A DNA stretch of 64,000 nt from a virus. Lineage: Duplodnaviria; Caudoviricetes. Shown here one piece after another: positions 15,894 to 64,000 of the stretch (positions within the stretch are counted from its first letter, which is position 1; each line of letters begins with the position of its first letter). Under the pieces are notes generated by a model, which saw only the letters and a list, made by a program, of their open reading frames with translations, searched no databases and was not told the DNA's origin. The stretch covers positions 16,489 through 80,488 of IMG/VR virus record IMGVR_UViG_3300020576_001287. One strand, given 5' to 3'. Made by a program: the position numbers and the translations under genes.

Positions 15894-17552
15894 ATGGCAC
15901 AGCTCAGGTACACAAACTACAAAGACGATAAATCAAGTTTTAATAACAACATAAAGGATATAGGTATAGTACCTCACGGACTTTACAGGGGGTTTGACTA
16001 TGATGCTACTTCCTCCGGCACTACGCTAGTATTATCCCATACAGTTAATGGGTATTCCATTACTGAGATAGATGGTAGTGTAACATCTGATCTTGGGGTA
16101 GTGAGAACTAGGCAGGGGGTTATGGTCGTAGAGGATGCTGCGGTGTCTATAACGGGGCTTACGGATAATAGCCTAGAGAGTGATCCAAGAATAGACTTAA
16201 TTGTATTGGAGCATACGTATGTAGAGACTATAGGCGGTACTGCGGCAGGGTATACGCAGATAATAGGTACACCAGGTAGTAGCCCCGTAGCCCCAGCTCT
16301 GACTGATGATACAATACAGGTTATACTAGGTGAACTATATTGGCCTGCCGGTGCAGCATCTACAGATGATGTTGGGGTAGTATATACTAAAGCCCCCGCA
16401 CCGTTTTTTGTAGACTCTGATATATTTGTAACTAAAGCTGGGGTACAGGAGATAACAGGCCGTAAGAGAATACTACATCAAATAGGGGATATAGCTACTG
16501 CTACTTTAGACTTGGTAAGCGGTAGCATATACAACATTAAGGCTACTACCGATAGTAACATGTATAGTATTGCCAACGTAGGGCCGAACTATATTAATGT
16601 TATTGGGGTAGATGTTCCGTTTAGTGGTGATACCAATTACTTTAAAGTATACACACTACAAAAGCTACGTATTGTAGGTGGAGGGTCTGGGGCCATAGTT
16701 GTACCCAATAGTGTAATGCACATAGAGGCCGGAGAAACTTTTGAGCTGTGGGACGTAAGTGGGCAGTTTGGATACAGCTCCAATACTTACCTTGTTACCA
16801 AGGGTAATGCGGTTCTTAAAAATAGCCCTAATAAGCTGTTTGCAGCTATGATTGGTAACAAGGGTACGGGCACCTACGGGACTAACCTGGTTACCATACC
16901 CACAACAGGGGACTACATAGAGGTGGCTACCAATTTCACCACCATAGATACGGATGGGGGTATACTATACTTTAGCTCTACGGATTCTCTATGGGATGGG
17001 GTTAATACCGTAACCAAAGCGGGTAGGCAGCTTGTAGTTAAGATAACGGATAGCTCAGGCTTTGTTAACGGGCTACAGCTACGCAATACCGGAACAAGCA
17101 CCAGTACATACAAGAAGATAGAATTTGCAGATGGTGGGGGCATAAGAAGGGTAGGTAACGGAGCATCTGCGGTATACCTTAAACTGTTGGAGGAGACGGA
17201 TAAATTTATTGTATTGGAGTACTGGGTTAATGAGCAGTGGATAGCTTCAGGTATGACCCCAGACGGTGTTTCCCCTGTACAGTATAGCAGGCAGGGCAAC
17301 ACAGTATTTATACGGGGGGTTAGCTATGATGCAGCTCCTATTAGTGTAACTACCTCCGTGTTACTGTTCACGCTGCCTTTAGGCTATAACCCATCGGTAC
17401 CATTTAAGTACATTACCGCTGCTACGTATTCCGGCAGTCTTACACAGGCTATCATAGAAATAGATGGTTCCGGTAATGTAAGATTACGAGGAGATTTAGC
17501 GGTAGCTTCCAACAGTGGTGTATGGTTAACTATTAGCTTTAGTACGCACTAA
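15894..17552 (+). CDS. Tail fibre / baseplate-attached structural protein
   Basis: PRIDLIVL motif of baseplate-anchored fibres; C-terminal LLFTLPLGYNPS beta-domain. Confidence 0.7.
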   Translation: MAQLRYTNYKDDKSSFNNNIKDIGIVPHGLYRGFDYDATSSGTTLVLSHTVNGYSITEIDGSVTSDLGVVRTRQGVMVVEDAAVSITGLTDNSLESDPRIDLIVLEHTYVETIGGTAAGYTQIIGTPGSSPVAPALTDDTIQVILGELYWPAGAASTDDVGVVYTKAPAPFFVDSDIFVTKAGVQEITGRKRILHQIGDIATATLDLVSGSIYNIKATTDSNMYSIANVGPNYINVIGVDVPFSGDTNYFKVYTLQKLRIVGGGSGAIVVPNSVMHIEAGETFELWDVSGQFGYSSNTYLVTKGNAVLKNSPNKLFAAMIGNKGTGTYGTNLVTIPTTGDYIEVATNFTTIDTDGGILYFSSTDSLWDGVNTVTKAGRQLVVKITDSSGFVNGLQLRNTGTSTSTYKKIEFADGGGIRRVGNGASAVYLKLLEETDKFIVLEYWVNEQWIASGMTPDGVSPVQYSRQGNTVFIRGVSYDAAPISVTTSVLLFTLPLGYNPSVPFKYITAATYSGSLTQAIIEIDGSGNVRLRGDLAVASNSGVWLTISFSTH

Positions 17553-23933: not shown

Positions 23934-24367
23934 TGAGAGTAACTAAAGACAAAAACATACATACAGTGGATATAAGCAAACCCCTGAATAAAAAAGAATT
24001 GCTGGCCTCAGTAGCTGCTGATGACTGTTATACAAGGGAGTGGAAGCCTGATGACAGATTATGTGTATTGTGTGCCAGCAACACCATTTGCGGTATCTTA
24101 TACAACCACCGGCAGAACAAGAGAATCAAGAAGATGGAAAAAGAGGAGGGGGGTTTCTTAGATAGCTCTGACTTTGATGGGATAGACAGGGAAGCCCTAA
24201 TAGAGTGGTTAAAGGTGGAACAGAGAACAACACTACAGCTAATAGCACACGTACAGGAGCTTAGTGATTGCCCAGATGAAAAGACAGTACAGTACTGGTG
24301 CCGGTCTTTTATACTTGAAACAAAAGGCATAGGTACTAAAGAGGGTAAAGTAATTGTAAAATTATAA
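23933..24367 (+). CDS. Hypothetical protein, possible Zn-binding
   Basis: C...CxxC....C; coupled ORF. Confidence 0.6.
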   Translation: MRVTKDKNIHTVDISKPLNKKELLASVAADDCYTREWKPDDRLCVLCASNTICGILYNHRQNKRIKKMEKEEGGFLDSSDFDGIDREALIEWLKVEQRTTLQLIAHVQELSDCPDEKTVQYWCRSFILETKGIGTKEGKVIVKL

Positions 24368-24372
24368 CTGGT

Positions 24373-24600
24373 ATGAACAGAGCAATAGATAATCAAAAGC
24401 CTATGGATTTGGAGAACCCAATTCCATTAAACAGTATTACAGAGTATTTAGGAGCTTGTGCTACGTATAAGATTCTGATGCTTAAAAAGGCTTCCGTAGT
24501 GGTGCCCGATCCTGCTGAAGACGAGGTAAAGCAGTGTCTTAAAAGGATACAAAACTTTGAAGAGCTACACTTTAACAACAGGCCACTAGGTAGAATATGA
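24373..24600 (+). CDS. Hypothetical protein
   Basis: Coupled ORF. Confidence 0.5.
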   Translation: MNRAIDNQKPMDLENPIPLNSITEYLGACATYKILMLKKASVVVPDPAEDEVKQCLKRIQNFEELHFNNRPLGRI

Positions 24601-24959
24601 TAAAGGTTATTATAGCCGGAGGCAGGGACTTTGATAATTACCAGGCACTGGAAGCAAAGTGCGATAAGTACTTATGCAATGTAGCTAAGACAGAGAGAAT
24701 ACAGATAGTGTGTGGTGAGGCAAATGGGGCAGACAAGTTGGGTAAACGTTATGCTAAGAATAGAGGATATAGCGTTAAGCTGTTCCCAGCTAATTGGGAT
24801 TTGTTCGGGCCTGCGGCTGGGCCATTGCGTAATGGGGAAATGGCAGACTATGCTAGTGTACTTATAGCCTTTTGGGATGGTAAGTCAAAGGGTACAGCCG
24901 ATATGATAAGACAAGCCAAGATAAATAAGTTAATCGTTAGAATCGTAAAATACAGATGA
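24597..24959 (+). CDS. SLOG-family (YspA / DUF2493-like) protein
   Basis: KVIIAGGRDF...GEANGAD...AGPLRNGEMA...AFWDGKSKGT. Confidence 0.9.
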   Translation: MIKVIIAGGRDFDNYQALEAKCDKYLCNVAKTERIQIVCGEANGADKLGKRYAKNRGYSVKLFPANWDLFGPAAGPLRNGEMADYASVLIAFWDGKSKGTADMIRQAKINKLIVRIVKYR

Positions 24960-27082
24960 GCATTAATGATTTAAGAAACCCATCATGCAGGGCTTGTGGG
25001 CTACGTAGGGACTGTAAGACTATCTGCAACATGGGTGTAGATGACTTGATAAGCGTAGAGCCGGAATTGGGGGCTATGATGGTTATAAGTGATTACCCAG
25101 CTTTAGAGGATGATGCTAACGGTACAGTAGGGCAATCATCTAAAGAGGAATTATTTTGGTCTGTAGCTAAAGAAGTGGTAAGGGTAAATACGGACTACAT
25201 ATACTTTACCTACGTTAATAAGTGTATGCCCAGGGAATCCCACAAGGTGACTGATGATGAGTTGTTTGCCTGTGCTTCTACGTACCTGAGAAAAGAAATT
25301 AAGCGTGTGCGCCCAAAGGTTATACTTCTTATGGGGGCACACGCTATGAAAGCTTTGGGCTTTAAAGGAATAGTGGGTAAGATGCGTGGACAGACCCATA
25401 CGCTCACATTCAAGTTTAATGGTGAACCTTTTGAAACTAAGGTAGTTATCACCCAATCCCCTGTGTACGTAAAGTACAATACCAGCGAGTTAAAAAACTT
25501 TGCCTCTGACATAAATAAAGCCTGGGGAATATCCAACGGTAGCGAGGTGATGAGGGATTCACCGACTAAAGTAACTTTAATAACTAACCTACAAGAGGTA
25601 GAGGAGTTGATAGGTTACATACATGAAACCAAAGAATGTGCTTTTGACTTTGAAACCACCACACTAACGGACAGAGGTATATTTGATCCCAACTTTAAGG
25701 CTACGTTAATGGCTGTGTCTTTTCAGCATGGTTCGGCTTACACCATACCCTTGTTTCACTTTGATACCCCATTTACTGAGAAGCAAGTACTACACATTTT
25801 AAAAAGGTTTTCAGAAGAGGTGTGGATGAATAAAAGTATCAGGAAGATAAACCAAAATATAAAGTTTGATATGCACGTAGCGGCTCGTTACGGCTTTCCT
25901 GTTTTTAGAGGTAGGTTAGATTGCACTATGGTAATGCACACCCTGTATGATGATCTTACGCGACATGGTATAAAGGAATGGATACCTACATTCTTTCCGC
26001 AGTTTACCGGATGGGAATTAGAGATAAAAGGTAAGGAGTGGGAGAAGATACCGTTAAAGCAGTTATCAGACTATGCAGGGGTGGATACAGATGCTGCCTT
26101 ACGTGGTTGCACAGTACTGGAACAAAAGTTACTTGAAGACCCCCGTAGCTACCGAATATACCGTAACCTATCTGTGTTTGCTTTAACCACCTTGTATAAC
26201 ATGGAACGTAGGGGCATGTTGATAGGCAGAGGGGAGATTACAAAGTATGCAGCAAGGGCTGTAGACCTTTTGAAACAGCAGGTGGATATAATGAATAAAT
26301 ACCCACAGGTTAAACATTTTGTAAGCGAAGAGGCAGAGTTGGCAAAGCAGAAAGTATTAGTAGAGCTACGGGAAAAGAAATCCAGAGCAAAAGGCAAGCA
26401 GATAGACAAATATGCCGTTAAGATACGGGAAGTAAAGTCAGGGGCTATATCTGTTTACAAGGGTATAAATTTTGGTAGTACACAGCAGCTTGGGGAGTTG
26501 TTATACACAGATGCTGGGTTTAATTTCAGAGAGCCTTATGATAAGAAGAAAAAGAAAGCAGGTAAGGTTACGGGGGAGGCAGTACTAAAGAACCTTGGGG
26601 ATAAGACAGGCTTTATAACAGATGTTCTTGTATATCGTTCTATAAAAACTACCTGGAGCCGGTATTTAAAGGGGCTTGGGTTACTGATGGATGAGCATGA
26701 CAAGGTACATACCACTTTTAAACAAGCAGCAGCCCGTACAGGCCGTCTTGCGTGTGTAGGGGTAGATACATTAATACACACTAACATAGGGCATGTACGA
26801 ATAGGGGATTTAATACCGGAGTGTGAGGGTATTGATGAGTGTATGTTAGGTATAGAAGCACTAACACATACAGGAGAGTTTAAACCTATAACACATGTTA
26901 TAAACAAGGGAGAGGAGGAAATGTACAGAGTAGAGATGCACAGTGGGCAAATTATTGATTGTACCATGCAGCATATATTTTATACGGACATTGGTTGGAA
27001 AAGTCTGAAAGATATTTTAAATTCGCAAACAGAATGTAGAATATTTTATGAACTCACAGATTTATCCGACCCCGAAGTATGA
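24956..27082 (+). CDS. polA: DNA polymerase family A, N-terminal part (UDG-like + 3'-5' exonuclease + part of pol) fused to split-intein N-half
   Basis: AFDFETT, QNIKFD, YAGVDTD exonuclease motifs; TGRLA followed by CVGVDTLIHT (intein block A, Cys1 at 26753) and IDCTMQHIFYT (block B). Confidence 0.92.
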   Translation: MSINDLRNPSCRACGLRRDCKTICNMGVDDLISVEPELGAMMVISDYPALEDDANGTVGQSSKEELFWSVAKEVVRVNTDYIYFTYVNKCMPRESHKVTDDELFACASTYLRKEIKRVRPKVILLMGAHAMKALGFKGIVGKMRGQTHTLTFKFNGEPFETKVVITQSPVYVKYNTSELKNFASDINKAWGISNGSEVMRDSPTKVTLITNLQEVEELIGYIHETKECAFDFETTTLTDRGIFDPNFKATLMAVSFQHGSAYTIPLFHFDTPFTEKQVLHILKRFSEEVWMNKSIRKINQNIKFDMHVAARYGFPVFRGRLDCTMVMHTLYDDLTRHGIKEWIPTFFPQFTGWELEIKGKEWEKIPLKQLSDYAGVDTDAALRGCTVLEQKLLEDPRSYRIYRNLSVFALTTLYNMERRGMLIGRGEITKYAARAVDLLKQQVDIMNKYPQVKHFVSEEAELAKQKVLVELREKKSRAKGKQIDKYAVKIREVKSGAISVYKGINFGSTQQLGELLYTDAGFNFREPYDKKKKKAGKVTGEAVLKNLGDKTGFITDVLVYRSIKTTWSRYLKGLGLLMDEHDKVHTTFKQAAARTGRLACVGVDTLIHTNIGHVRIGDLIPECEGIDECMLGIEALTHTGEFKPITHVINKGEEEMYRVEMHSGQIIDCTMQHIFYTDIGWKSLKDILNSQTECRIFYELTDLSDPEV
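26753..27079 (+). mobile_element. Split intein N-fragment, 109 aa
   Basis: Starts with Cys after TGRLA; TxxH block B; ends at stop 27080-27082. Confidence 0.88.
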
Positions 27083-28043
27083 AATTGCTTATGCTTATGA
27101 TGGGCACAGGTTTAGGGATATGCGAATATTAACTAAAGAATACTTACAGGAAGTTTACGTAGACACAGGACTAACACGTAAACAAATGTTTAAAGAACTT
27201 AAAATAAGTGAACACATGTTACATTGCTCTTATATTCATTGGTATAGCGCAGAGGAAAGAAAAATTATAGGGGGTAGAAAAATAAGTGCCGCACAACGTA
27301 TAAATAACTCAAACAAAATTAATACAGGGGTACCTAGGGTACTTATACCAGTAGATGTTTTACAGGGGTATTTAGATGCCAAACACTCACTTGAAAAAAT
27401 GTCACGGTTATTAAACCTAGCACCGCAAACTATAAGGGCTAATCTTAAGCATCATAGGTTAATAGATCAGTTAGTTAAAATGGGGGTTCCTTACGAGAGG
27501 GTTATAGCAGCAAAAAGTTTAGATAGTTTTATAGGTACTAACATACTGCGAGGTTTAGAGGTGGTTAATGTAGACCTATTTTCAGAGGACGTTAAAGTTA
27601 CTTTACGTGACCTTGTGTATGCGGAGCAAGCTTTAACCAGTATGAAACACACTATAAAGCATATACGTACTGGGGTAATGGCAAGATTTGCAGCAAGAGG
27701 GGTGAAGCTTACAGATTATAAATTACCTGGAAGTACTCTTAATTCTACTGTCAAGTTGCTGCTAACAGAGTTAGGGTATGACGTAGTTGTAGAATTTGAA
27801 GTGCGGGGAAAGTTTTATGATTTTAAATTTAAGCGGTACAAGCTGTTGTTAGAAATAGATACTCCATATTACCATAATACAGAAGAGCAGTTGGATAATG
27901 ATAAATTAAAAACCAAGATAGCTAAAGAAAATGGTTATATGCTATTGCGGGTTTGTACGGACAAGAAAGATAAAAAAATAACTTTAAAAAGAAAACTAGA
28001 GGCATGTTTAGCACCACTACGATTAAAAAGATTACCCCAATAG
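27048..28043 (+). CDS. Free-standing Vsr / DUF559-like (EDxHD-type) putative homing endonuclease
   Basis: C-terminal EFEVRGKFYDF...LLEIDTPYYH...DNDKLK...GYMLLRV; HTH-like N-terminal segments; different frame from both pol halves. Confidence 0.8.
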   Translation: MNSQIYPTPKYEIAYAYDGHRFRDMRILTKEYLQEVYVDTGLTRKQMFKELKISEHMLHCSYIHWYSAEERKIIGGRKISAAQRINNSNKINTGVPRVLIPVDVLQGYLDAKHSLEKMSRLLNLAPQTIRANLKHHRLIDQLVKMGVPYERVIAAKSLDSFIGTNILRGLEVVNVDLFSEDVKVTLRDLVYAEQALTSMKHTIKHIRTGVMARFAARGVKLTDYKLPGSTLNSTVKLLLTELGYDVVVEFEVRGKFYDFKFKRYKLLLEIDTPYYHNTEEQLDNDKLKTKIAKENGYMLLRVCTDKKDKKITLKRKLEACLAPLRLKRLPQ

Positions 28044-28117
28044 GTGTAAGGACTGTAGCAGATATAACAGTAGCTGACAACCATAGTTATGTAGGTAATG
28101 GCATTGTGTCTCATAAT
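28004..28117 (+). mobile_element. Split intein C-fragment
   Basis: Blocks F/G ending His-Asn; +1 Ser at 28118. Confidence 0.9.
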
Positions 28118-29011
28118 AGTGAGACTCCAAACCTACAAAATATAACTACGCACGTTAAGATTAAGCACCCATTTGTAGAAGAGGTTACAACTTCTGTAAA
28201 GAAGTGTTTTCTTGTACCCAAGGGCTATACGCTTATTAACTGGGACTTTTCGCAGGCAGAGTTACGCATGATTGCCGACCTTGCAAATGAGGTTAACATG
28301 ATTGCAGCATACAAGGCCGGAGTGGACTTGCATAAGCTTACTGCATCTAAGCTTATGAAGATAACTTTAGAAGAGTTCTTACAGTTACCTAAAGTGGAGC
28401 AAGACGAATGGAGGCAGAAAGCAAAGGCAGCTAACTTCGGTTTGATATACGGACAATCTGCTGAGGGCTTTAAAGATTATGCTAAGAACACCTATGGGGT
28501 AAAGATGAATTTAAAAGAGGCCATAGAAATACATACGGCTTTCTTTGTAGCATACCCAGCCATACTACAATACCATGAAGATTACATAAACAAGCAGAAG
28601 CAGCATGGTTGTGTAAGAACGGTGTTTGGGCGTAGGGGCAGATACCCAGATGTAGATAGTGTAGATGACTTTTTGAGAGGTAATGCAGAACGTGAGTTGG
28701 TTAACTTTCCGGTACAGGGTAGCAATGGCGAGAATACAGTATTTGCATTAGCACTACTGGAAAGAAGGTTACCAAAGTCAGTACAATTAGTCAATACAGT
28801 ACATGATAGTATTATGGCGTATGTACCGGACAGGTTGGTACCATACGTTGTTAAGGTAGGTATAGATACTTGTGTTAATACCCCTATGCTTAGATTCTTT
28901 GGTAAGCAAATGAAACATCTTAGTATGGCTGTAGATGCTCAGTTTTCTAAAACAAATTGGAAAGCTTTAGAAAACTGGGACGAAGAAAAGTGGAGGGAAA
29001 GTATATGCTAG
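28004..29011 (+). CDS. polA: Split-intein C-half (38 aa) fused to the C-terminal DNA polymerase A domain
   Basis: ...DITVADNHSYVGNGIVSHN|S ETPNLQN; motif A WDFSQAELR, motif B RQKAKAANFGLIYG, motif C VHDS. Confidence 0.92.
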   Translation: MFSTTTIKKITPIGVRTVADITVADNHSYVGNGIVSHNSETPNLQNITTHVKIKHPFVEEVTTSVKKCFLVPKGYTLINWDFSQAELRMIADLANEVNMIAAYKAGVDLHKLTASKLMKITLEEFLQLPKVEQDEWRQKAKAANFGLIYGQSAEGFKDYAKNTYGVKMNLKEAIEIHTAFFVAYPAILQYHEDYINKQKQHGCVRTVFGRRGRYPDVDSVDDFLRGNAERELVNFPVQGSNGENTVFALALLERRLPKSVQLVNTVHDSIMAYVPDRLVPYVVKVGIDTCVNTPMLRFFGKQMKHLSMAVDAQFSKTNWKALENWDEEKWRESIC

Positions 29012-29799
29012 GTAAGTTAATATTTGGTGATTGTTTAAAGGTATTAAAGCTTATACCAGATGCCTCGGTAGATATGATATTTGCAGACTTACCCTACGGT
29101 ACCACAAAATGCAAATGGGATAGTTGCATAGACTTGGGCGAGCTTTGGATACAGTATAAAAGAATAATAAAAGCTAATGGGGCTATCTTGCTATTTGCTC
29201 AATTACCATTTGATAAGGTATTAGGGTGTTCTAATTTGGCTTGGCTTAGATACGAATGGGTGTGGGAGAAAACACAAGCTACGGGGCATCTTAATGCTAA
29301 GAAAATGCCTATGAAAGCGCACGAAAATATTTTAGTATTCTACGAAAATATGCCCATGTATAACCCACAGAAAACAACAGGACATAAGCCCATAAATACA
29401 CACTATAAACCAATACATGTGCAAAATAGAACAAAACTATACGGTAAGGCAACTAAGTCTTTATCAGGAGGCGGGGAAACAGACAGGTATCCAAGAGATG
29501 TACTAAAATTCAGTTCAGATAAACAAAAAATGAAGAGTACAGAATTTATACACTCTACGCAAAAGCCTTTAGCTTTGGTGGAGTATATGATACGAACATA
29601 TACAGTACCTGGTATGCTAGTTGTAGACAACACATGTGGTAGCGGAACTACTGGCGTGGCCTGTGTTAATACAGGTAACCCGTTTATACTTATTGATAAT
29701 GATATTGACGAGTATAGGAAAGCTAAGAAGAGAATACAAAAACATATAAATGGTACTGACGTGGTTTTTAAATGTCTTTTATTTGATAAAGTAACTTGA
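29005..29799 (+). CDS. DNA methyltransferase (N6-adenine / N4-cytosine, beta class)
   Basis: FADLPYG catalytic motif; HSTQKP; VVDNTCGSGTT SAM-binding motif. Confidence 0.9.
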   Translation: MLGKLIFGDCLKVLKLIPDASVDMIFADLPYGTTKCKWDSCIDLGELWIQYKRIIKANGAILLFAQLPFDKVLGCSNLAWLRYEWVWEKTQATGHLNAKKMPMKAHENILVFYENMPMYNPQKTTGHKPINTHYKPIHVQNRTKLYGKATKSLSGGGETDRYPRDVLKFSSDKQKMKSTEFIHSTQKPLALVEYMIRTYTVPGMLVVDNTCGSGTTGVACVNTGNPFILIDNDIDEYRKAKKRIQKHINGTDVVFKCLLFDKVT

Positions 29800-29809
29800 A
29801 TAAAATTTT

Positions 29810-29840
29810 GTTGTTTTGTAAAATTTTTTATTTACTTTTG
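29810..29840 (+). promoter_or_regulatory. Promoter GTTG-N19-TACTTTTG
   Basis: Bacteroidota consensus upstream of the SSB gene. Confidence 0.75.
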
Positions 29841-29860
29841 TTTAATTAAAATCAATAATC

Positions 29861-31156
29861 ATGGACTTGAACGCTTTAAAAAAGAAGCAACAGCAGCTTG
29901 ATTCTCGGTCTGGTAGTGACGGGTTTCTCAGCAGAAAAGATTTAACAGCCGATGGTATGGTAGTTCGGCTTGTACCCCCGTCACCGCAACTTGACGGCAT
30001 GTTTCACCTAGAGGTAAAAAAGTACTGGTTCCCAACACCGGACGGTAAGAAGCAGGGTATTATATGCGTAAGCACATTCGGCAAGGACAGCGTTATAGAA
30101 GAAGAGTTGGCAATGGCTAATGAATCTGAAGATGAAGAGCTGTTGGAGTTGGTACAGGAAGTAAAGCTACAGTCTGAGAACTGGATGGGAGTTTTACAGT
30201 TGGTGTACAAAAAAGACCGTAACGATAACGTGATAGGCGTAGAAGTTGTGGACGGGCATGGTAAGATATTGCAGGTACCTAACACATGCCTCAATGCAAT
30301 TATCAAGCTGGCTACAAACAAAATGGCCCTTAAAGAACCTACCAAGCATGGTAGCACTGATGGTATCGCTGACCGTGAATACGGTAGCAACATGCTTCTC
30401 TCTAAAACCGGTAAGGCACTATCCACCAAATACGATGCTGCTTTAGATGAGCAGATGGAGATAGAAGAAAAGTACTACCGTGATCTGCCTGACGTTTACA
30501 CGGTTGCTAAAAATCAGATGAAGTCTGTAAGTATGCAACGTGCTTTGATCCGTGAATACCTGTATGGGGAAGCTATACCCAAAGCTGTAAAGGCTAAGGA
30601 AGATGCCAGGGTAGAGGCTCTGAAAGCCTCAAGACCATCTACGGTTAAGAAGAAACCTACAGCAGCATCTGATGACGATGATGACGAAGACGAGGCACCA
30701 GCCCCGAAGAAAAAGGCAGCTAAGAAACCTGTGGAGGAAGATGAGGACGAAGATGATGAGCCGGCTCCGGTTAAGAAGAAAAGTAAAAAGCCTGTTGATG
30801 AGGATGACGAGGACGAAGCACCTCCATTTAAACCAGTCGGAAAAAAGAAAGCTGCAATACTTCTGGATGCTGATGATGACGATGATGACTATGAGGTACC
30901 TGCTACCAAAAAGGGTAAAAAGCAATTGGAGGAGGACGATGATGACGATGAGCCTATACCTGCAAAGAAAAAGGCTACACCACCAGCTCCGGCTAAGAAA
31001 GCAGCACCGAAGAAGAAAACAATAGTAGACGAAGATGATGACGAGGAGGAAGATATACAGCCGGTTAAAAAGAAGTCATCTGCGCCTGTAGCAGGTAAAG
31101 GAGCAAAGAAGACAATACTTGATGACCTGGATTTAGACGAGGATGATGACGAATAG
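29861..31156 (+). CDS. Single-stranded DNA binding protein (gp32-like) with a very long D/E/K-rich tail
   Basis: VVRLVPP...KKYW; ADREYGSNMLLSKTGKALSTKY; acidic C-terminus. Confidence 0.75.
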   Translation: MDLNALKKKQQQLDSRSGSDGFLSRKDLTADGMVVRLVPPSPQLDGMFHLEVKKYWFPTPDGKKQGIICVSTFGKDSVIEEELAMANESEDEELLELVQEVKLQSENWMGVLQLVYKKDRNDNVIGVEVVDGHGKILQVPNTCLNAIIKLATNKMALKEPTKHGSTDGIADREYGSNMLLSKTGKALSTKYDAALDEQMEIEEKYYRDLPDVYTVAKNQMKSVSMQRALIREYLYGEAIPKAVKAKEDARVEALKASRPSTVKKKPTAASDDDDDEDEAPAPKKKAAKKPVEEDEDEDDEPAPVKKKSKKPVDEDDEDEAPPFKPVGKKKAAILLDADDDDDDYEVPATKKGKKQLEEDDDDDEPIPAKKKATPPAPAKKAAPKKKTIVDEDDDEEEDIQPVKKKSSAPVAGKGAKKTILDDLDLDEDDDE

Positions 31157-32269: not shown

Positions 32270-33265
32270 ATGACACACCCAATTTTATACTTTACGGATT
32301 TACACGTTAACCGTTATAATCAATTCTCAGAACACCATGACCGGCTAAAGGATTGTCTTAAAGTTATCAATGATGCTTTTAAATTCATTGATAAGGTTGG
32401 GGGCAAAACTATATTGTTTGGCGGGGATATGGGGGACTTACCTAAGTGGATATACATTGATGTAATTGATTCCATTATCAAATGTTTGTCCAATAACTTT
32501 CGGAAGTTTCCGCATATAACTATGGTGGCAATATCCGGCAACCACGATCACAATACAAAGAATCTAATTGATAAACCTGCCAAGACTTTGCTTAGTGTAT
32601 TCGCTGTAGCATTTCCTGACAGGTTTATTTTAATTGATAACGAGCATTACTTTATTCCTGGGGCAATAACTTTTGGTATACCTTACTACGAGTACCCTGA
32701 GCATTACAGTAAGGCTTTAGAGGCTCAGGTAGAGCTGGCAACCGGTATGAGTGAGGAGTTTCCCGAAGTGTCCAAAATACTCCTCATACACCAGACACCG
32801 GAGGGTATCTACAATAAGCACATAAAAGCTGACACTAACCCCAATGACCCAAGGTATAAGCACTTTGATATTGTGTTAGATGGGCACATACACAAGAAGC
32901 AGATAATAAACCCAAGATTTATAATAGGTGGTAACCCTCTGCATAGAGACCTAGGGGATATAGGAGACGAAAAGGGTATGTGGGTTATGGATGCTTCAGA
33001 GCCGGTTAGAACACTGGATTTCATTAGTCGTAAAGGCAGATACCCAGAGTTTGTAGTAATGAAGCAGGAGGACATAACAGACGAGGTTAAACACACTACG
33101 TTTGCTGTGCCGGATATGACAGAGCAAAAAGTAACTTTACCTGGTAGTGCTGATGCTAATTTGTTTGCCTCCAACCTGTCTAAGGAAACCTTGATAACTA
33201 ACTTTTGGAAGCAGATGGAGGGTAAGAATGAGAGGCTTTTGAAAACCGGATTATCCCTGATTTAA
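32270..33265 (+). CDS. Mre11 / SbcD (gp47-like) metallophosphoesterase nuclease
   Basis: FTDLH, FGGDMGD, SGNHD, LIHQT, LDGHIH. Confidence 0.9.
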   Translation: MTHPILYFTDLHVNRYNQFSEHHDRLKDCLKVINDAFKFIDKVGGKTILFGGDMGDLPKWIYIDVIDSIIKCLSNNFRKFPHITMVAISGNHDHNTKNLIDKPAKTLLSVFAVAFPDRFILIDNEHYFIPGAITFGIPYYEYPEHYSKALEAQVELATGMSEEFPEVSKILLIHQTPEGIYNKHIKADTNPNDPRYKHFDIVLDGHIHKKQIINPRFIIGGNPLHRDLGDIGDEKGMWVMDASEPVRTLDFISRKGRYPEFVVMKQEDITDEVKHTTFAVPDMTEQKVTLPGSADANLFASNLSKETLITNFWKQMEGKNERLLKTGLSLI

Positions 33266-33367
33266 AGTAACTTTAAAAATAGTTTGGGAATTATTTTGTG
33301 GTCCCAATTTTAATTCTGAATTTTACAGTCTAACAAAATTTCTTTTTAACCAATTCAATCAAAATTT

Positions 33368-55633: not shown

Positions 55634-56290
55634 ATGACTGAAAATAAATACATAGCTTATTATCGTGTTAGTACACAGAAACAGGGCCAATCCGGCTTAG
55701 GCTTAGATGCCCAGAAAACAACGGTAAATACTTTCCTAAAAGGTATAACCCCAATAGCTGAATTTACCGATATAGAAAGCGGTAAAAGTAATACCAGACC
55801 GGAGCTGCAAAAAGCATTATCAAAATGTATTTCTGAAAATGGTATTTTACTAATTGCAAAGCTGGATCGTTTGAGCAGAAATTTAACCTTTATATCTACC
55901 TTAATGGATAATAAAGTTAGGTTTATTTGCTGCGATATGCCAGACGCTAACGAAATGACTATACATATTTTTGCATCGTTAGCACAATGGGAACGTAAGA
56001 AAATAAGTGAACGTACTACCAATGCATTGCAGGAGCTAAAGAAACGAGGTGTAAAGCTCGGTAATCCCCAAAATTTAACTACTTCAGCCAGGGCAGCAGG
56101 AGCAGCAGCAGTAAGCAAAAAAGCAGCAGAAAACCCCAATAATAAGCAGGCAGCATACGTAATAAAATTGCTGCAAAGTACCGGTAAATCTTTAACAGAA
56201 ATTGCCAAAGAATTAAACGAAGCTGGTTATAAAACCTCCCAGGGCAAAGAGTTTAAACCGATGCAAGTTAGTAGGCTAATAAAGCAGTAA
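55634..56290 (+). CDS. Small serine recombinase (resolvase/invertase family) with C-terminal HTH
   Basis: YYRVST catalytic Ser motif; ESGK..RPEL; AKLDRLSR; AQWER..ISERT. Confidence 0.93.
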   Translation: MTENKYIAYYRVSTQKQGQSGLGLDAQKTTVNTFLKGITPIAEFTDIESGKSNTRPELQKALSKCISENGILLIAKLDRLSRNLTFISTLMDNKVRFICCDMPDANEMTIHIFASLAQWERKKISERTTNALQELKKRGVKLGNPQNLTTSARAAGAAAVSKKAAENPNNKQAAYVIKLLQSTGKSLTEIAKELNEAGYKTSQGKEFKPMQVSRLIKQ

Positions 56291-58251
56291 CTATAGCCCA
56301 ATAAATTTTATCAATACTAAAGTAGTTTTAACCAGCTTACTTTTGCTTTATCATTAACAACTAAAATATACAAGTTATGAAAGCAGAACTTTTGCAGTTA
56401 GCACACGATTTAAAAAACGAAGGTTTTACCGTAATAGTGCCTACGGAAAAAGATGGTAAACATTACAACTGGTTTAAGTTTACAGACGGCAAAAACTTTG
56501 CTTCTGTAAGTGATGGAATTTGTGGCGGACTATCTTACAGTAGGGTACATAAACCAAACAAAGACAGCGGTACTGGCGTAATGACTTCACCTACTCAATG
56601 CGAATCGGCTAGCCTTGAGTTAGCAAAACAAGCTTTAAAATATCCGGATTGGTTCCGGCCTAATATTACACCAGTACAATATACTAGTGTTGAAGATTTT
56701 ATAAATGCTAGCCATAATAAATGGTGCAACTATACTATTTTGTAAACTAACTAAAAAACCGTAACAAAATGCCAAAAGTAAAAAATGATAAAAATTTTGA
56801 TTTAGGTAATTTAGGGAGATTCCCAAACTTCAGTGCAACCGGTAGTATTAAGGGTATGAAGAAAAAGTATTATGGAAAAGATGCTTTGCTGATAAAGCAA
56901 GGATCATATATTTACAATGTATCCAGCGAACCGGAAATTTATAATAACTTAAAATAATTTTCAAAATGTCTTATATAAAACACATAGTAACAGGATCAAA
57001 CCCAGGGCAGCAGTTTTGCGAAAAATGCGGTAGAAATTTAAACAGTGGTCCTACAGAATTACTACCAATTGGGGATATTTGGATTCATGAAAACGGCAAA
57101 ATATTTTCTTCTGTTTATCCTACCGGACAGTATACAACCGCCTGCAAAAAATTACAGGCACCGGAATAAAATTAAAATACTTTTGTTTAAAATGCCTACC
57201 ATGTGTGGGCATTTTTCATTTATAGTAAAAACCTATAGGGTAATAGATTAATAGCATTTTGTTTGCTGGTTTTACGCTTTACTTTTGCTTTATCATTAAC
57301 AACTAAAAACAAATAAAATGCGGACAGTAATAGACAATAATCAAAGAGTATTCCAGGTAGTAACCAGTACCGGAAAACAGGCATTTTGTAACCTCACAGA
57401 CCTTAACAAAGTTGTGGCAGAATTAGACACTAATCCAGATTATTTTGTTATTAACCATGTTTTTAATAATAGCCTGCATAAAATGGGTAAAAAGGCCCTG
57501 CGTGATATGTTCGCAGCCCACCGAATAAAAATGGAATTTGTTTATTAATCCCAAACCAGTTTTTAACAAAAATTCAAAATTTATTTTATGTTTCAATATT
57601 TGGAAATTGTAGAGTTGGCAAACGGGAATTTGCAAATTTCTTTAACTGCTGAGGGCAAAGAGTTTTTAACAGAAAAGCAAGAGGATAATTATTTTACCTG
57701 TGGCTGGTTTGATCTTATGGAAAACTACGCCTGCAATGGTAGCTATAGCCCCACAGATAGTAGCGAAATAGGGGGATTAACTGAAGCCCCTATTATATTG
57801 AGCTGCAAAGATGTTGACGATAACGGAGCGGTAATAATACACCCAGACACAAAAATTTGGTACTATAATGAATACATGATTAATGACCCTTTTGCGGTTT
57901 TGCTGTCTGGTGATCCGGTTATATTTACGCTATATTTTGAACCAGTAAAAGCTACCAGGGCAGACATGAAAATACTAAATATTTTAGGGCCTAAAGGCTG
58001 GATTCCTGAGTTTTCAAGTTCAGACAAAAGATATAAAAGAACGGATTTATATAACGATAAATCAAAATTTCCACACGATAATATTTCTTATCGTAAAGGT
58101 AATAAAGCCTTGTGGATAGCTCGCCCATTTTATGAGAGTGACGGCAAAATACTTCAGTATGCGGAACTGGTGGATAATGCCTGGAGTCTAGCTATACAAT
58201 TAAATATAGATGATATACAAAGCAATAAAGTACCGCAATTAAAATAGTTTA

Positions 58252-58279
58252 AAGGCTGCAACATTTGCAGCCTTTTTTA
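58252..58279 (+). terminator. Intrinsic terminator
   Basis: AGGCTGCAA-CAT-TTGCAGCCT plus T-run. Confidence 0.8.
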
Positions 58280-59170
58280 TGCTATAGGCCCAGGCTATAC
58301 ACCAATAGATTTTTACAATTTTGTTTTTTATTTTATCCTCATACTTTTGCTAAATACTTAACAACTAAAATTTATCAAAATGCTACAGACAAAAAAGAAT
58401 GTTCAGGAATTGACAGCGTATGAACTTTTAAACGGTTTGCGCCAATACTTTTTAAAATCTCATGGCATGGCATATACACAGCCTGTATACACTCTAGCGG
58501 AATTACAGGCAGAAAAAGCCCGTAGGGATGAGATAACCGGTAAACCTTTAACCGGTCAGGAGCAAATAAATTTCATTGCTGCCAATGCTGAAGTATTAAA
58601 GGATCACGATACAAAAGAATTGTATCAAATGGCCTTTGAAAGAGTGCTAACTAAGGCTTTACCTTATACCTCGTTTCACTACGGGAAAAATTACATGATA
58701 GATAAATTTCATGTTAATTTTAATCACACTATAGAACACAATAAAAACCGGTTTGAAACATTTTTAAAAATGTTGGGTATTGACATTTATTTGTTTGGCC
58801 TGTATAATAATCATAATCATTTATTTGATTCTGATTACTTCCGTAGATCAGATAAACCAAATACTTTTGTTAACGCTAAATTGGACAACCTTGTAAATTT
58901 TCTAATTACGTTAACCACCGGACAGCAAACCGAGGATTTAAAACAATGCCATGAATTTATGGCAGCTAATAACCTGGAGCATAAACAAGCAAAATATAAA
59001 TTTACAATATCCGGTTTGACTGTAGAAGGTTTTGTAAATGGTAATATTAAAATTACTGGGTTAACCGAGGAAAACAATAAACTAATTGACGGGCTACTTA
59101 ATATAAAGCATTTAATATATAAGAATTGGCAGGAATCCAAATAAACGCCTTTTAAAGTAACTTTAATTAA

Positions 59171-59200
59171 TCCCCTACTTTTCACCAGGTAGGGGATTTT
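59171..59200 (+). terminator. Intrinsic terminator
   Basis: TCCCCTAC...GTAGGGGA plus T-run. Confidence 0.75.
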
Positions 59201-60868
59201 TGTAGTTATAGCTAAAATCTATTACCCTATAAATTTATCGTGTTGGCATGGTTTAAAATACCTTTTACTTTTGCTTTATCATTAACAACTAAACTACTTT
59301 TAAAATGAATCAGATTACACTAGTAAAAGCAAACGGATATAGAGACGACAAACCAGTAACCGACAAAGAATATAAACTACTAAATGGAACATACTTTGAT
59401 GGAAATACGCCGGACACAGTATGTTTTATATTGTCTTCAGCTATGCAAACACGCCAACGGTTAAAAATATATAATGGAGATTCCACCACCGGAAAAGATT
59501 GGATGGAAGAACATGGTAAATATATAACCGTAGGACGTAGCACCGGCACAATTAAAATACCTTTGGCAATACTCACAGTAAAAAGTTACGGTGGTGGTAG
59601 TTTGTTGGAAGATTGTATAGTTAAGATAGTGGATAAAAAAACAGGTGTGCTATTATATCAGCATGCAAACTACACACCAGGAACAACAGAAATAAAAGAA
59701 AATATGGATCCGGCATTATCGGAGTATTCACATGTTTTATATGTAAATGGTGAATTATATTCGAGGCATAAAACATTAAAATCAGCGAAGCAATTAAAAG
59801 CAAAATTATCATAGGCTTATAGCCCTATAAATTTTATCTATTTTCATTTATCATTCTTACAAGTACTTTTGTTTCTCATTCTTAACAACTAACTAAAATT
59901 ACTTTTTATGTCTACAATTAACCAGGCTACACAGTACAAAGAAAAATTTTCTACCATTAAAGAGATAGCAGAATTAAACGCTATTAACGGTGGTAAATGG
60001 TTTACACCCGATAATATGGCTTTTTTTAATACCTTTATACATGGTGACCTGATAAAAGGCCGGTACTTTATTACTTCAAACTATCCAAAGGATCAGCCAG
60101 AAAATAAAGCATATTCTTTGCACATGGCTAAGAATTGCGGTAGTATAGAAACAATTTTTGATTTTAATTGCTTTGCTACTTTGGCCCAGGCTAAAAAGGC
60201 TTTAAAAGAATTGCCTAAAGAATTTTACCAGGCATTTACATGCGCTCACACAGAATACACCACCGGCAAAAGTTCCGGTATGGGTTTTATGTCTCATGCG
60301 GAAATTGAGCTAACAAACACCACCAATGGAGGTATAAAATATAGTTTAGACTCTTTTACTGGTGCCTGTTCTTACATTGCTTTGAATTGGCAAAAATTAG
60401 GGTTTAATTTTGTGGAGACCTTAATACAAGATTCTGAAGTATTTAACCCAGATATTGCAGAAATTACCAAACATTATGAAATTTGCGCTTTATGGGCATC
60501 TTACGATATTAGAGAAGACGAAAAGGAAGTAAATTTGGATACTGTTTGCACCATTGAAGACATAACACCGGCACAACATAAAAAGCATATTGATATTGTT
60601 ACCAGGTTTGTAAAAGATAACCTTTATACTTTGATTCAGTCACGTTTACCAATTGGGGAAATAGGACATTCTTTATGGCTGTCTCAAAATGGGCATGGTA
60701 GTGGATTCTTTGACCAGTCTTTAGCCCCATATTATGTGGATCAGGCTATTTGTGATACCTTACAAGCCCAGGCCGGAAAGATACCGGAAATTACCCTTTA
60801 CATAAATGATACTAACCAAATAGACGGTTTATAAAATTTAGTTGTTAATACCTTTTAAACCTTATCAG

Positions 60869-60895
60869 AATCCCGCTAATGTAGCGGGATTTTTT
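60869..60895 (+). terminator. Intrinsic terminator
   Basis: AATCCCGCTA-ATG-TAGCGGGATT plus T-run. Confidence 0.8.
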
Positions 60896-61831
60896 ATTAT
60901 AGCTTTTAACTATAGCCGGATAGTATTTTGTGATTCTGTTTTATTTAAAGTTACTTTAGTTTTGCCCTATCATTAACAACTAAAATTTACTTACAATGAA
61001 TCAGAAAATTAATTTAGTGGAATTAAGTAACGCGATACAAGCATACAAAAACTGCATTGCAGCAAAAGAACAGAATGATAATACCAGGCATTGGGCAAAT
61101 GTATGGTTTGAGGTAATTGACAAAGCAAATAATCTATTACCGCATGGTAGCGGTATGGATAACAAAATATATTTTGAGATTGCAGAATGTACTGCAAATA
61201 AGCTTATAATTAAATTCGATTATCACCACATGGCAGAGGGATACTATACCCATTGGAGTAATTATAAAGTAATAATTACTCCCGCATTTGGCGGATTTGA
61301 ATTAAATATAAAAGGTAGAAATTATAACGATATTAAAGATTATTTTTATGATATGTTTGATCCCCTTTTTGATTGCCCGACCATAGCACAATGGCAGGAG
61401 CAAAGAAAAATGCAATCGGTAAAATAGTTTTTTGATCCTTATTACTCCACTATCTAAAATTTATAAAAAATGAATACCGCAAATATTGAATTTAAACAAG
61501 TAAATAATAGTACTACCGGCACTCCTCGTTATGTATGTCATTTTACAGCCTTGATAACTGATAAAGACGAGCAAGAAATAAAAGATACTTTTGCAGCATC
61601 GTTACAACTTAACCCGTTATTACTTACCAGTCTAAAATATGAGAGAGCCTTAAGCAAAGTTAAAAAGTTAGGCGGTAAGAAATACCACAATAAAAATTAC
61701 GGTGGTGGTATCGCCTTTAGTGTTTGGAATACTGCAAAACTTGAAAATACTTTAACTGAATTATTAAAAGTTGCACCTCCCGCAGTACCTTGTATCAGTT
61801 AAAATACTTTTGCATTTTAATTTTTGATCCT

Positions 61832-61865
61832 TACCCATATCTTTGCGGATATGGGTATTTTTTTG
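61832..61865 (+). terminator. Intrinsic terminator closing the + strand array
   Basis: TACCCATATC-TTTGCG-GATATGGGTA plus T-run. Confidence 0.8.
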
Positions 61866-62023
61866 CCCTACTTGCTACCAGGCATACACCCAATAGCATT
61901 TTATAAGCTTTTAACCTACCTACGAGTTAAAATGCGTTACAATAAAGCAAAAGTAAGGTATACCCACACAAAGTACTATTTTAGGCGCAAATAGGCTATT
62001 TTTAATAAAGCTATTTTAATACA

Positions 62024-62058
62024 AATAAAAATCCCTTTACCGATTAAAGTAAAGGGAT
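62024..62058 (-). terminator. Intrinsic terminator closing the - strand array
   Basis: ATCCCTTTAC-CGATTAAA-GTAAAGGGAT preceded by an A-run on +. Confidence 0.75.
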
Positions 62059-62082
62059 CAATAGTAAGTATTGTTTAGATTA

Positions 62083-63556
62083 TTATTTGTATAGTTCACA
62101 TAAAGTATTGTATTCAGCTATTAAAAGCCTATCAGTATTTTTGTAGTCATTGTTACGACCGTTAGCATGTATAAATTCACCTGTAACAAGATCGTGAAAA
62201 TAAGTAGCTAACCCCACATCTTTGTAGCTGCTTTTACTTACTACGATTAAATAAGTATCCGTAAAGTATACATACACCCGTTTATCTGATTCCGGCTTGA
62301 CCAGTAATATTTTTTTAGGCTTTAATGCTATAATCGCTTTTAATCTGTCAAAATTTCTCATACTATAGTTATGTTTAAATTTTTAAAGTAACTTGAGATT
62401 ATATTATACACTACTTCAGTTGTTACGCCTTTTATCTTTTCGTTATCGTTATCCCTGCTAATATTGCTACTACCATGCACCCAGTAAAAAGTGTGGTAAT
62501 CAGTCTTATAAGTACATTTTTCAAACCTTATACCACTAACACTAGTATTTGTTTTTAATACTTCTTTTATGCGTTTAATTAACTTCATTACTTTATTTAG
62601 GGCTACTTTATACGCTTGATAATCTTGTATGTCTATTTGAGATAAGACAGCGTTATTTAAAAGTATAGTATCTAAACAATCAAAACCTATATTATAACTT
62701 TTACCGTTACTGTTTATGGTAGCTATGTTGGCTATTAGTTTACCGCAATTATCGCAGGAGCACCCATAACCATCTAGTATAGATACGTACTGTTTATTAA
62801 TTAGTGTATAAGTTACATTAAGCGGTAATCTCCTTTGTGTTATATTTTTCATACTTACTTATTTTTAGCTGTTAACAAAGTTATGCGTATTTCGTTTATT
62901 GCTTCATTCACATATTCACCGCCTTTTATCTGCCATACTTGTGCTAACTGCAATAAATCCGGTTTAGTTAGTGTGGCAAGTTGTTTGCGGTATCCTGTAG
63001 GATTGTATACATACTCATTTACTAGGGCTTTTAATTGCCCAATTTTTCGTGTTAGTGCTGAAGTAGGTAGTTTGGTAATTAGTCTATTTTGATCCATAAT
63101 TAAAGGCTATTTAGTTGTTTTGCAATAATGCATCATTACTAGTATCTTGTAGTACTTCAGTTGTTAGTATGTTGTGGTGCAACATTAGTACTTTTAAACC
63201 CGTCACTAGCTTATTATATTGTTCGGTTGGGTAATTCATTTTATTTAGTTGTTAGTTGTTAATAATGATTATTGTTTGTTTTATCCCCTGTATGCTACTA
63301 CTGCCTCATCGTTACTACGATTAAAGGTAATACAGTAAGCGGAACTATTTGTTTGGGTATATACCCCATGCGTAAAGTTATTGTTAGTAGTTCGCATAAA
63401 CATACAAAGCGGTAACGCCTCGTTATTGTGATCACAGATTACATACATTGTTTCCGATGCAAGTTCTAAGCCCAAATAATCCACATTATCGGATTGCTGT
63501 TTTTCTGTAAGGTCGTAGTAGCTCACTACCTCAGAACGGTTATAAAAGTACGTCAT
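62083..63556 (-). other. Minus-strand small CDS: 62083-62361, 62358-62852 (CxCxxC..C), 62855-63097, 63111-63239, 63281-63556
   Basis: Coupled ORFs with AACAACTAA leaders and a promoter at 63591-63610. Confidence 0.65.
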
Positions 63557-63815
63557 AATTGAAAAGTGTTTTTAGTTGTTATCAATACCCCAAAAGTAAA
63601 GTAACTTTAATTACTTGCCAATACTATTAACTTATACCCACTATAGCCAAAACTTATAACCCTATCAATTTACGCCTATTGCCCAATAGCCACATTATAC
63701 GCCTATAGCATACATCTAAACACTATAGCCATTATGATACTGCAACATGCTATATGGATCAGTAGTATACTTATGTTGCTATGCATGCTTATGTATCCGT
63801 AGTAAGCTATAGTTA

Positions 63816-63903
63816 TACTATGCTATAATACTACTACTACTTACGTAATAATAGCGTAAGCGGTTATTATGTAAGTAAGTAGTAGTAGTATTATAGCATA
63901 GTA
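63816..63903. repeat. Perfect 29-bp inverted repeat with 30-nt spacer
   Basis: TACTATGCTATAATACTACTACTACTTAC (63816-63844) and its exact reverse complement (63875-63903). Confidence 0.92.
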
Positions 63904-64000
63904 GTATATAACAGTATTATTAAAACATCTGTATCCGTAGTATCATTATAGTAATGTAGTACTAAATGTATATTACTACATAGTAGTAATATAGTGGAAT

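Follow-up and report, generated by a model that had tools for sequence, protein, structure and literature searches.

The stretch analysed here, hereafter the window, comprises 64,000 nucleotides of a virus of the Caudoviricetes (Duplodnaviria) and corresponds to positions 16,489 to 80,488 of the IMG/VR virus record IMGVR_UViG_3300020576_001287, which is 80,488 bp long and estimated to be 95% complete. On the + strand, which bears nearly all long open reading frames of the window, three overlapping genes between positions 24956 and 29011 encode the two parts of a family-A DNA polymerase, each fused to one half of a putative split intein, and, between them, a candidate homing endonuclease. Gene 1 (24956-27082; 708 residues, frame 2), delimited by its open reading frame and Pfam matches, encodes the N-terminal polymerase half and ends in the N-intein. 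Gene 2 (27048-28043; 331 residues, frame 0) encodes a free-standing EDxHD/Vsr-like protein and shares 35 nucleotides with gene 1 and 40 with gene 3, while gene 3 (28004-29011; 335 residues), which returns to frame 2 and thus to the frame of gene 1, opens with the C-intein and continues with the remainder of the polymerase. Predicted promoters and terminators in the window are not more numerous than in shuffled sequences, and none of them separates the three genes. Coordinates, lengths and frames of the three open reading frames agree with a preliminary description of this DNA, made from the letters alone, which had proposed a polymerase fractured by a naturally split intein. As argued below, the locus is very probably a fractured family-A polymerase gene, the products of which we infer to be rejoined by protein trans-splicing.

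The N-extein (24956-26752; 599 residues) consists of a UDG superfamily domain (residues 42-182), a proofreading 3'-5' exonuclease (208-392) and the opening portion of the polymerase domain, where residues 483-600 of gene 1 match positions 8-123 of the Pfam DNA_pol_A profile, and it ends with TGRLA. The same profile continues from position 123 to 352 at residues 39-285 of gene 3 (E 4e-50), in the C-extein (28118-29011; 297 residues), and the PHROG polymerase profile phrog_17 is likewise divided, with positions 480-977 falling in gene 1 and the continuation, 979-1240, in gene 3. As the coverage of both profiles resumes where it stopped, the polymerase has been cut at a single point with nothing lost. 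The preliminary description had placed polymerase motifs A, B and C in gene 3, where they are indeed present with the catalytic aspartates kept: D81 in motif A, K141, F145 and Y149 in motif B, and H267 and D268 in motif C all occupy invariant columns in the alignments with relatives. In the 95% complete genome, no second copy of a PolA, an intein or the nuclease has been found.

With respect to the N-terminus of the polymerase (24956-25501), the UDG superfamily domain (Pfam E 5e-12) is preceded by a cysteine-rich stretch, and the alignment with polymerases of SPO1-like Bacillus phages begins at or near residue 1. The fusion of UDG and polymerase is also found in two relatives (L085 and P0124).

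The N-intein (26753-27079; 109 residues, residues 600-708 of gene 1) opens with CVGVDTLIHT directly after TGRLA, providing Cys1, and possesses a block B motif TMQH at residues 670-673. The C-intein (28004-28117; 38 residues) ends with VSHN, which is followed by Ser+1 of SETPNLQN. An N-intein half with a TxxH motif and a C-intein half ending HN|S, of these lengths and at these positions, had been recognized in the preliminary description, and its suggestion of a comparison with intein profiles is borne out in so far as the Pfam Intein_splicing profile matches the two halves in a complementary way, with positions 9-87 on gene 1 and 121-155 on gene 3; the scores of these matches are considered further below. 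Searched with phmmer against the Protein Data Bank (PDB), the N-intein finds the gp41-1 intein 6qaz best (E 0.004), followed by DnaB, DnaX and DnaE inteins, with nearly all matches listed being inteins, and the C-intein aligns with the C-termini of the DnaX, DnaB and gp41-1 inteins through the terminal His-Asn. In addition, two relatives (P0128 and P0129) carry Intein_splicing (PF14890) as a precomputed Pfam domain.

The residues expected to perform splicing are conserved beyond the window. Cys1 (C600) as well as Thr and His of block B (T670 and H673) are invariant in nine relatives, with Cys1 present also in all seven lineages for which both halves are available, and on the side of the C-intein, D20 of block F and H37 and N38 of block G are invariant in ten relatives, while S39, the +1 residue, is near-invariant and replaced by Cys in L085. 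Judged by sequence, these observations support the classification of tail and head as a class-1 HINT intein that is naturally split, and, as the similarity to gp41-1 is only marginal, the pair represents a new split-intein family.

The product of gene 2 is, on the criteria of profile and predicted fold, an EDxHD/Vsr-like homing endonuclease, which is expected to be active. A word-indexed search with gene 2 returned the self match only. In an exhaustive HMMER search of a representative library 207 relatives were recovered, 25 of them at E <1e-10 and of similar length, which rules out that gene 2 is an orphan. Seven orthologues from loci with both intein halves can be aligned over the full length, and a profile built from them retrieves from the PDB, first of all, the catalytic domain of I-Bth0305I (3r3p; E 2.9e-4). 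An AlphaFold2 model based on a 35-sequence alignment, with a mean predicted local distance difference test (pLDDT) value of 89.9, led in a Foldseek search to the same domain as the best match (3r3p_A; TM 0.69 on the target), followed by the Vsr structures 1vsr and 1cw0 (E. coli Vsr). Within the nuclease domain (27729-27995; residues 228-316), which displays weak Pfam matches to MTES_1575 and DUF559, the 35 sequences agree without exception at D258, E269 and D285 and almost so at D271, K288 and R301, and a histidine follows the E.D motif in all seven of the paired orthologues. The conserved residues align with the EDxHD active site named previously (Taylor et al., 2011; PMC3239194). The N-terminal 220 residues of gene 2 are confidently modelled and mostly helical, and have no match to any Pfam DNA-binding family, NUMOD and HTH included.

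Translation of the endonuclease is probably subject to control by the messenger RNA. A stem-loop predicted on the + strand at 26994-27070 (-21.2 kcal/mol; z -4.43, a stability unmatched in 200 shuffles) encloses the start codon of gene 2. Weaker hairpins that include the start codon are predicted in the related loci L085 (z -2.5) and L086 (z -2.3) and none is predicted in L087; around the start of gene 3 of the window no RNA structure is predicted (z +1.1).

As a megablast search of the locus against GenBank phages gave no match, relatives are available at the protein level only. A region-restricted protein search identified eight clusters with an N-intein 42-58% identical to that of the window, seven of which are N-halves that stop after the intein, while P0003, P0004 and P0007 are C-halves that open with the same 38-residue head. 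The preliminary description had pointed to relatives as the place to look for an uninterrupted allele, and two forms have come to light: P0005 is an intein-free relative and reads GRISSANPNLQN at this position, and P0129 (974 residues), the eighth of the clusters, is a polymerase in which the intein of the window is found as a contiguous mini-intein that holds no nuclease, TGRL|CVGVDT...VNHN|SSVGPNLQN.

A scan of IMG/VR with the alignment of the N-half retrieved 21 loci, and the same three-gene layout recurs in 11 contigs belonging to six other IMG/VR lineages (L085 = L092, L086 ~ L093, L087, L088, L094, and L095 = L096 = L097), which together with the window make up the seven lineages referred to throughout; when IMG/VR was scanned with the C-half, all polymerases retrieved were uninterrupted and of the TGRLSC type. 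The C-intein is exactly 38 residues long in all seven lineages and the length of the N-intein ranges from 101 to 112 residues. In the other six lineages the middle gene encodes 242-328 residues, begins 11-50 nucleotides before the stop codon of the N-intein and ends 7-46 nucleotides past the start of the C-intein. The two halves share one reading frame in six of the seven lineages, with differing frames in L088.

A further comparative observation concerns the exact position of the break. The sequence is TGR(L/M)|C...HN|SSxxPN in the majority of relatives, TGRLA|C...HN|SETPN in the window and TGRLS|C...HN|CVNPN in L085, so that in the window and L085 the break lies one residue later and the C-extein is one residue shorter. 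Because the extein lengths compensate across the break, the joined motif is always as long as the canonical TGRLSSxxPNLQN. This constancy is comparative evidence of selection on the ligated product. The junction TGRLA-SETPNLQN, as put forward in the preliminary description, stands as the best reading, with the addition that in the majority of relatives the intein begins one residue further upstream (TGRL|C...HN|SS). The closest C-half relative, P0003 (64% identity), displays an odd junction, HN|SGGRNSGPNLQN, which suggests that the motif is broken at yet another place or has gained an insertion.

Selection could be followed in L087 and L094, the only usable pair; as synonymous sites are saturated in most segments, the values quoted are raw proportions. 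The proportion of non-synonymous versus synonymous differences is 0.14 vs 0.48 for the N-intein, 0.15 vs 0.59 for the C-intein and 0.18 vs 0.77 for the nuclease, and purifying selection is thus visible on both intein halves and the nuclease in this pair. The C-extein segment of the pair is poorly aligned because the C-half of L087 is much longer. Between lineages, the intein halves are 44-75% identical, most extein pairs 22-46% and most nuclease pairs 25-49%, with the close pair L087/L094 exceeding the usual range for extein and nuclease.

Trees of the C-extein, the intein and the nuclease share a deep split between L087, L094 and L088 on one side and the rest on the other with a support of 99-100%, with no resolution below that split, which divides polymerases of only about 30% identity. 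The shared split in all three trees suggests that the arrangement is old and has mostly been inherited with the polymerase. The contiguous P0129 belongs to the major clade of the window and is nearest to the window in the C-extein (45% identity), a placement which, on sequence grounds, would fit a surviving ancestral state and re-fusion after loss of the nuclease gene alike. As this contiguous, nuclease-free form sits in the same major clade as split alleles, the split layout may be reversible. Counting the break TGRL|SS of most relatives, the break TGRL(A/S)|(S/C) of the window and L085, and an HNH-bearing contiguous form inserted 7-8 residues upstream, three break points are found. It is possible, although we put it forward tentatively, that a single intein lineage occupies all three within the 13-residue motif at a constant length of the product, in which case an old and maybe reversible split would have left a record of intein sliding, breaking and re-fusion.

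On this basis the following course of events is proposed. Two chains would be translated separately, one of 708 residues (N-extein and N-intein) and one of 335 residues (C-intein and C-extein), and the intein halves of 109 and 38 residues would dock into one HINT fold. Class-1 trans-splicing would then proceed by the N-S acyl shift at Cys1, attack by Ser+1, cyclization of the terminal Asn and a final O-N shift, to yield an 896-residue polymerase with the junction TGRLA-SETPNLQN, of the length of the canonical TGRLSSxxPNLQN. The endonuclease gene may either have broken a contiguous mini-intein at the loop where endonucleases are usually inserted, or travel together with the intein, and the RNA hairpin at its start codon probably holds down its translation. 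As no other PolA has been found in the genome, replication probably depends on the splicing step.

Several observations weigh against this reading. With 15.1 and 18.4 bits, neither of the two Pfam intein matches reaches the curated cut-off of 35.8, position -1 is occupied by Ala, the insertion point is shifted by one residue towards the C-terminus with respect to most relatives, and motif C has the sequence HDS where HDE is usual (28802-28810; residues 267-269 of gene 3). HDS is, on the other hand, shared by the majority of the relatives in the alignment, among them the uninterrupted P0005. In favour of the reading, a structural model of the complex between N-intein and C-intein reaches a score of 0.72 against 0.02 for the best control; of 80 solved complexes 58 attained this mark, and of 110 mismatched pairs 2. 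The individual runs agree in at least 91% of the contacts, the partner pLDDT is at least 71 and all 38 residues of the C-intein take part in the interface. The pass may nevertheless reflect the resemblance to solved split inteins, so that it should be read as a likeness to these and not as proof that this particular pair binds.

The alternative that survives best, unlikely as we consider it, is that the intein halves no longer splice and serve only to clasp the two polymerase chains to each other non-covalently, in the manner of intein-free split phage enzymes such as NrdA of Aeh1. There are documented cases of phage replication enzymes that are split and function unligated (Dassa et al., 2009; PMC2677866; see also PMC3045599), and the predicted complex would speak for association only and not for chemistry. 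A clasp, however, needs neither Cys1 nor the Thr and His of block B, the terminal His-Asn or a +1 nucleophile, yet these are invariant across lineages with exteins that are only about 30% identical. Both halves are also of full length and no stubs, and the constant length of the joined motif despite the shifted break is most simply understood if the ends are ligated.

That the polymerase gene is an inactivated remnant, with three decaying open reading frames and another polymerase replicating the genome, is less probable still. The HDS of motif C would be in line with decay, and with the record 95% complete, the gene for the replacing polymerase could be missing from it; nevertheless, seven lineages have preserved all three open reading frames intact, synonymous differences greatly outnumber non-synonymous ones, the polymerase keeps its catalytic motifs A, B and C and the genome holds no other PolA that could be found.

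Least credible of all is that the fracture is an artefact of assembly or sequencing or is mended at the RNA level by intron splicing or programmed frameshifting: the halves do share a frame and group I introns with this endonuclease family exist, as in recA of phage 0305phi8-36, but dozens of stop codons interrupt the polymerase frame between the intein halves, Logan contigs that stem from another sample of this study read through both gene junctions with zero differences, the layout is shared by the 11 contigs of six lineages, one of them with differing frames, and a joining of exons by RNA splicing would leave no need for intein halves kept in frame with every catalytic block. With that many in-frame stops, fusing the reading frames would take more than one indel or a simple pair of them, which upholds the argument of the preliminary description, drawn from the common frame of the halves and the different frame of the middle gene, that an indel does not account for the layout. 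Two of the refutations considered in that description, an assembly error and RNA splicing, have been sought: no error emerged at the junctions, and an Rfam scan of positions 24000-30000 at E values up to 1 found no intron family, with two sub-threshold chance matches. A gene interrupted by a group I or group II intron was accordingly rejected, with no covariance-model match between the exons.

Trans-splicing of the polymerase halves remains the preferred reading, and its closest precedents are fractured genes. Dassa, London, Stoddard, Schueler-Furman and Pietrokovski described 26 metagenomic loci of this order, among them gp41-1, gp41-8, NrdJ-1, IMPDH-1 and DnaE-2, in which the hosts are gp41, IMPDH, DnaE, NrdA, NrdJ, ligase and terminase; the Vsr-like family of endonucleases was first set out in the same work (Dassa et al., 2009; PMC2677866). 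In many of these loci the 3' end of the endonuclease gene overlaps the C-intein by 6-69 bp, and hairpins are located upstream of the endonuclease gene. The locus in the window follows the same plan, with an N-half and N-intein, a free-standing endonuclease (GIY-YIG or Vsr-like in the earlier loci), a C-intein and C-half, a host protein of phage replication, an overlap of 40 bp and a hairpin, here predicted, upstream of the endonuclease gene; unlike the earlier loci, its host is a family-A polymerase, and the endonuclease gene also overlaps the 3' end of the N-intein (35 nucleotides). The locus is thus a fractured gene of the kind described by Dassa et al. (2009), a layout known since then, also from phage and metagenomic replication genes with a free-standing endonuclease as the preliminary description had stated, and not a new principle.

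With the gp41-1 intein (PDB 6qaz and 6riz) the pair in the window has in common the class-1 Cys1/Ser+1 chemistry expected from its residues, a split at the canonical site, a short C-intein (about 37-38 residues) and a phage replication host; unlike gp41-1, its N-intein is 109 residues long, and the sequence similarity is marginal (E 0.004). As proposed in the preliminary description, the pair may be orthogonal to known split inteins. Gene 2, in turn, resembles I-Bth0305I, the EDxHD prototype (3r3p; PMC3239194), in the C-terminal nuclease domain recognized by profile and fold, in acidic and His residues at the catalytic positions and in a long N-terminal region presumed to bind DNA. Unlike that enzyme, which resides in a recA group I intron, gene 2 lies between split-intein halves and is devoid of a detected NUMOD or HTH domain.

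Inteins in the same polymerase motif are also present in PolA of the faecal phages MT121964 and MT121960 and of the IMG/VR loci L089-L091 and L098, the N-terminal splicing regions of which are recognizably related to the N-intein of the window: the tblastn alignment extends across it, and motifs including TH.INKG and CT..H are common to both. These inteins differ from the one in the window as they are contiguous, include an in-frame HNH nuclease, possess Thr+1 and are inserted 7-8 residues upstream (HG|C...SN|TTSGRLSS). Cyanobacterial DnaE and Nanoarchaeum PolB are likewise replicative polymerases assembled from two genes by trans-splicing of split inteins, but their halves are encoded at distant loci with no endonuclease gene between, and they belong to polymerase families C and B. 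In a literature search, no earlier description of PolA with a split intein came to light, its coverage being incomplete and thus not proof of absence.

Two of the polymerases compared are unusually long. The C-half of L087 (L087:10251-12317) comprises 688 residues, about twice the length of other C-halves, and PolA of MT121960 (L002:3995-8260; 1421 residues) seems to bear a second, LAGLIDADG-like insertion near motif C. Both polymerases may hold more than one intein.

Beyond the three genes, the window displays some further features. Downstream of the polymerase, past a methyltransferase gene, a protein with runs of Asp/Glu and Lys is encoded (29861-31156), and similar proteins with such runs are found in at least two relatives (L085:12212-13150 and L001:8807-9589), which suggests conserved synteny with the polymerase. 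The near-palindrome TAAAGTWACTTTA is over-represented, with 52 strand-matches at no more than one mismatch against 0.47 expected from shuffled sequences. These correspond to about 30 sites, for example 2486-2498 and 33263-33275; many copies are intergenic, but two are located inside the polymerase N-half (25567-25579) and the endonuclease gene (27593-27605). The G+C content of the window, about 42%, drops to 31-35% across its last 8 kb (56001-64000).

With respect to significance, the locus brings a new host protein, the family-A DNA polymerase, into the range of fractured genes, with the break at the highly conserved motif TGRLSSxxPNLQN. It would also provide a new natural split-intein family with favourable gp41-1 chemistry (Cys1, Ser+1 and a C-half of 38 residues), and at least seven natural variants together with a contiguous and an intein-free relative constitute raw material for protein-ligation tools as well as for studies on how inteins break and move. 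For the phage itself, genome replication would probably rely on post-translational ligation of its polymerase.

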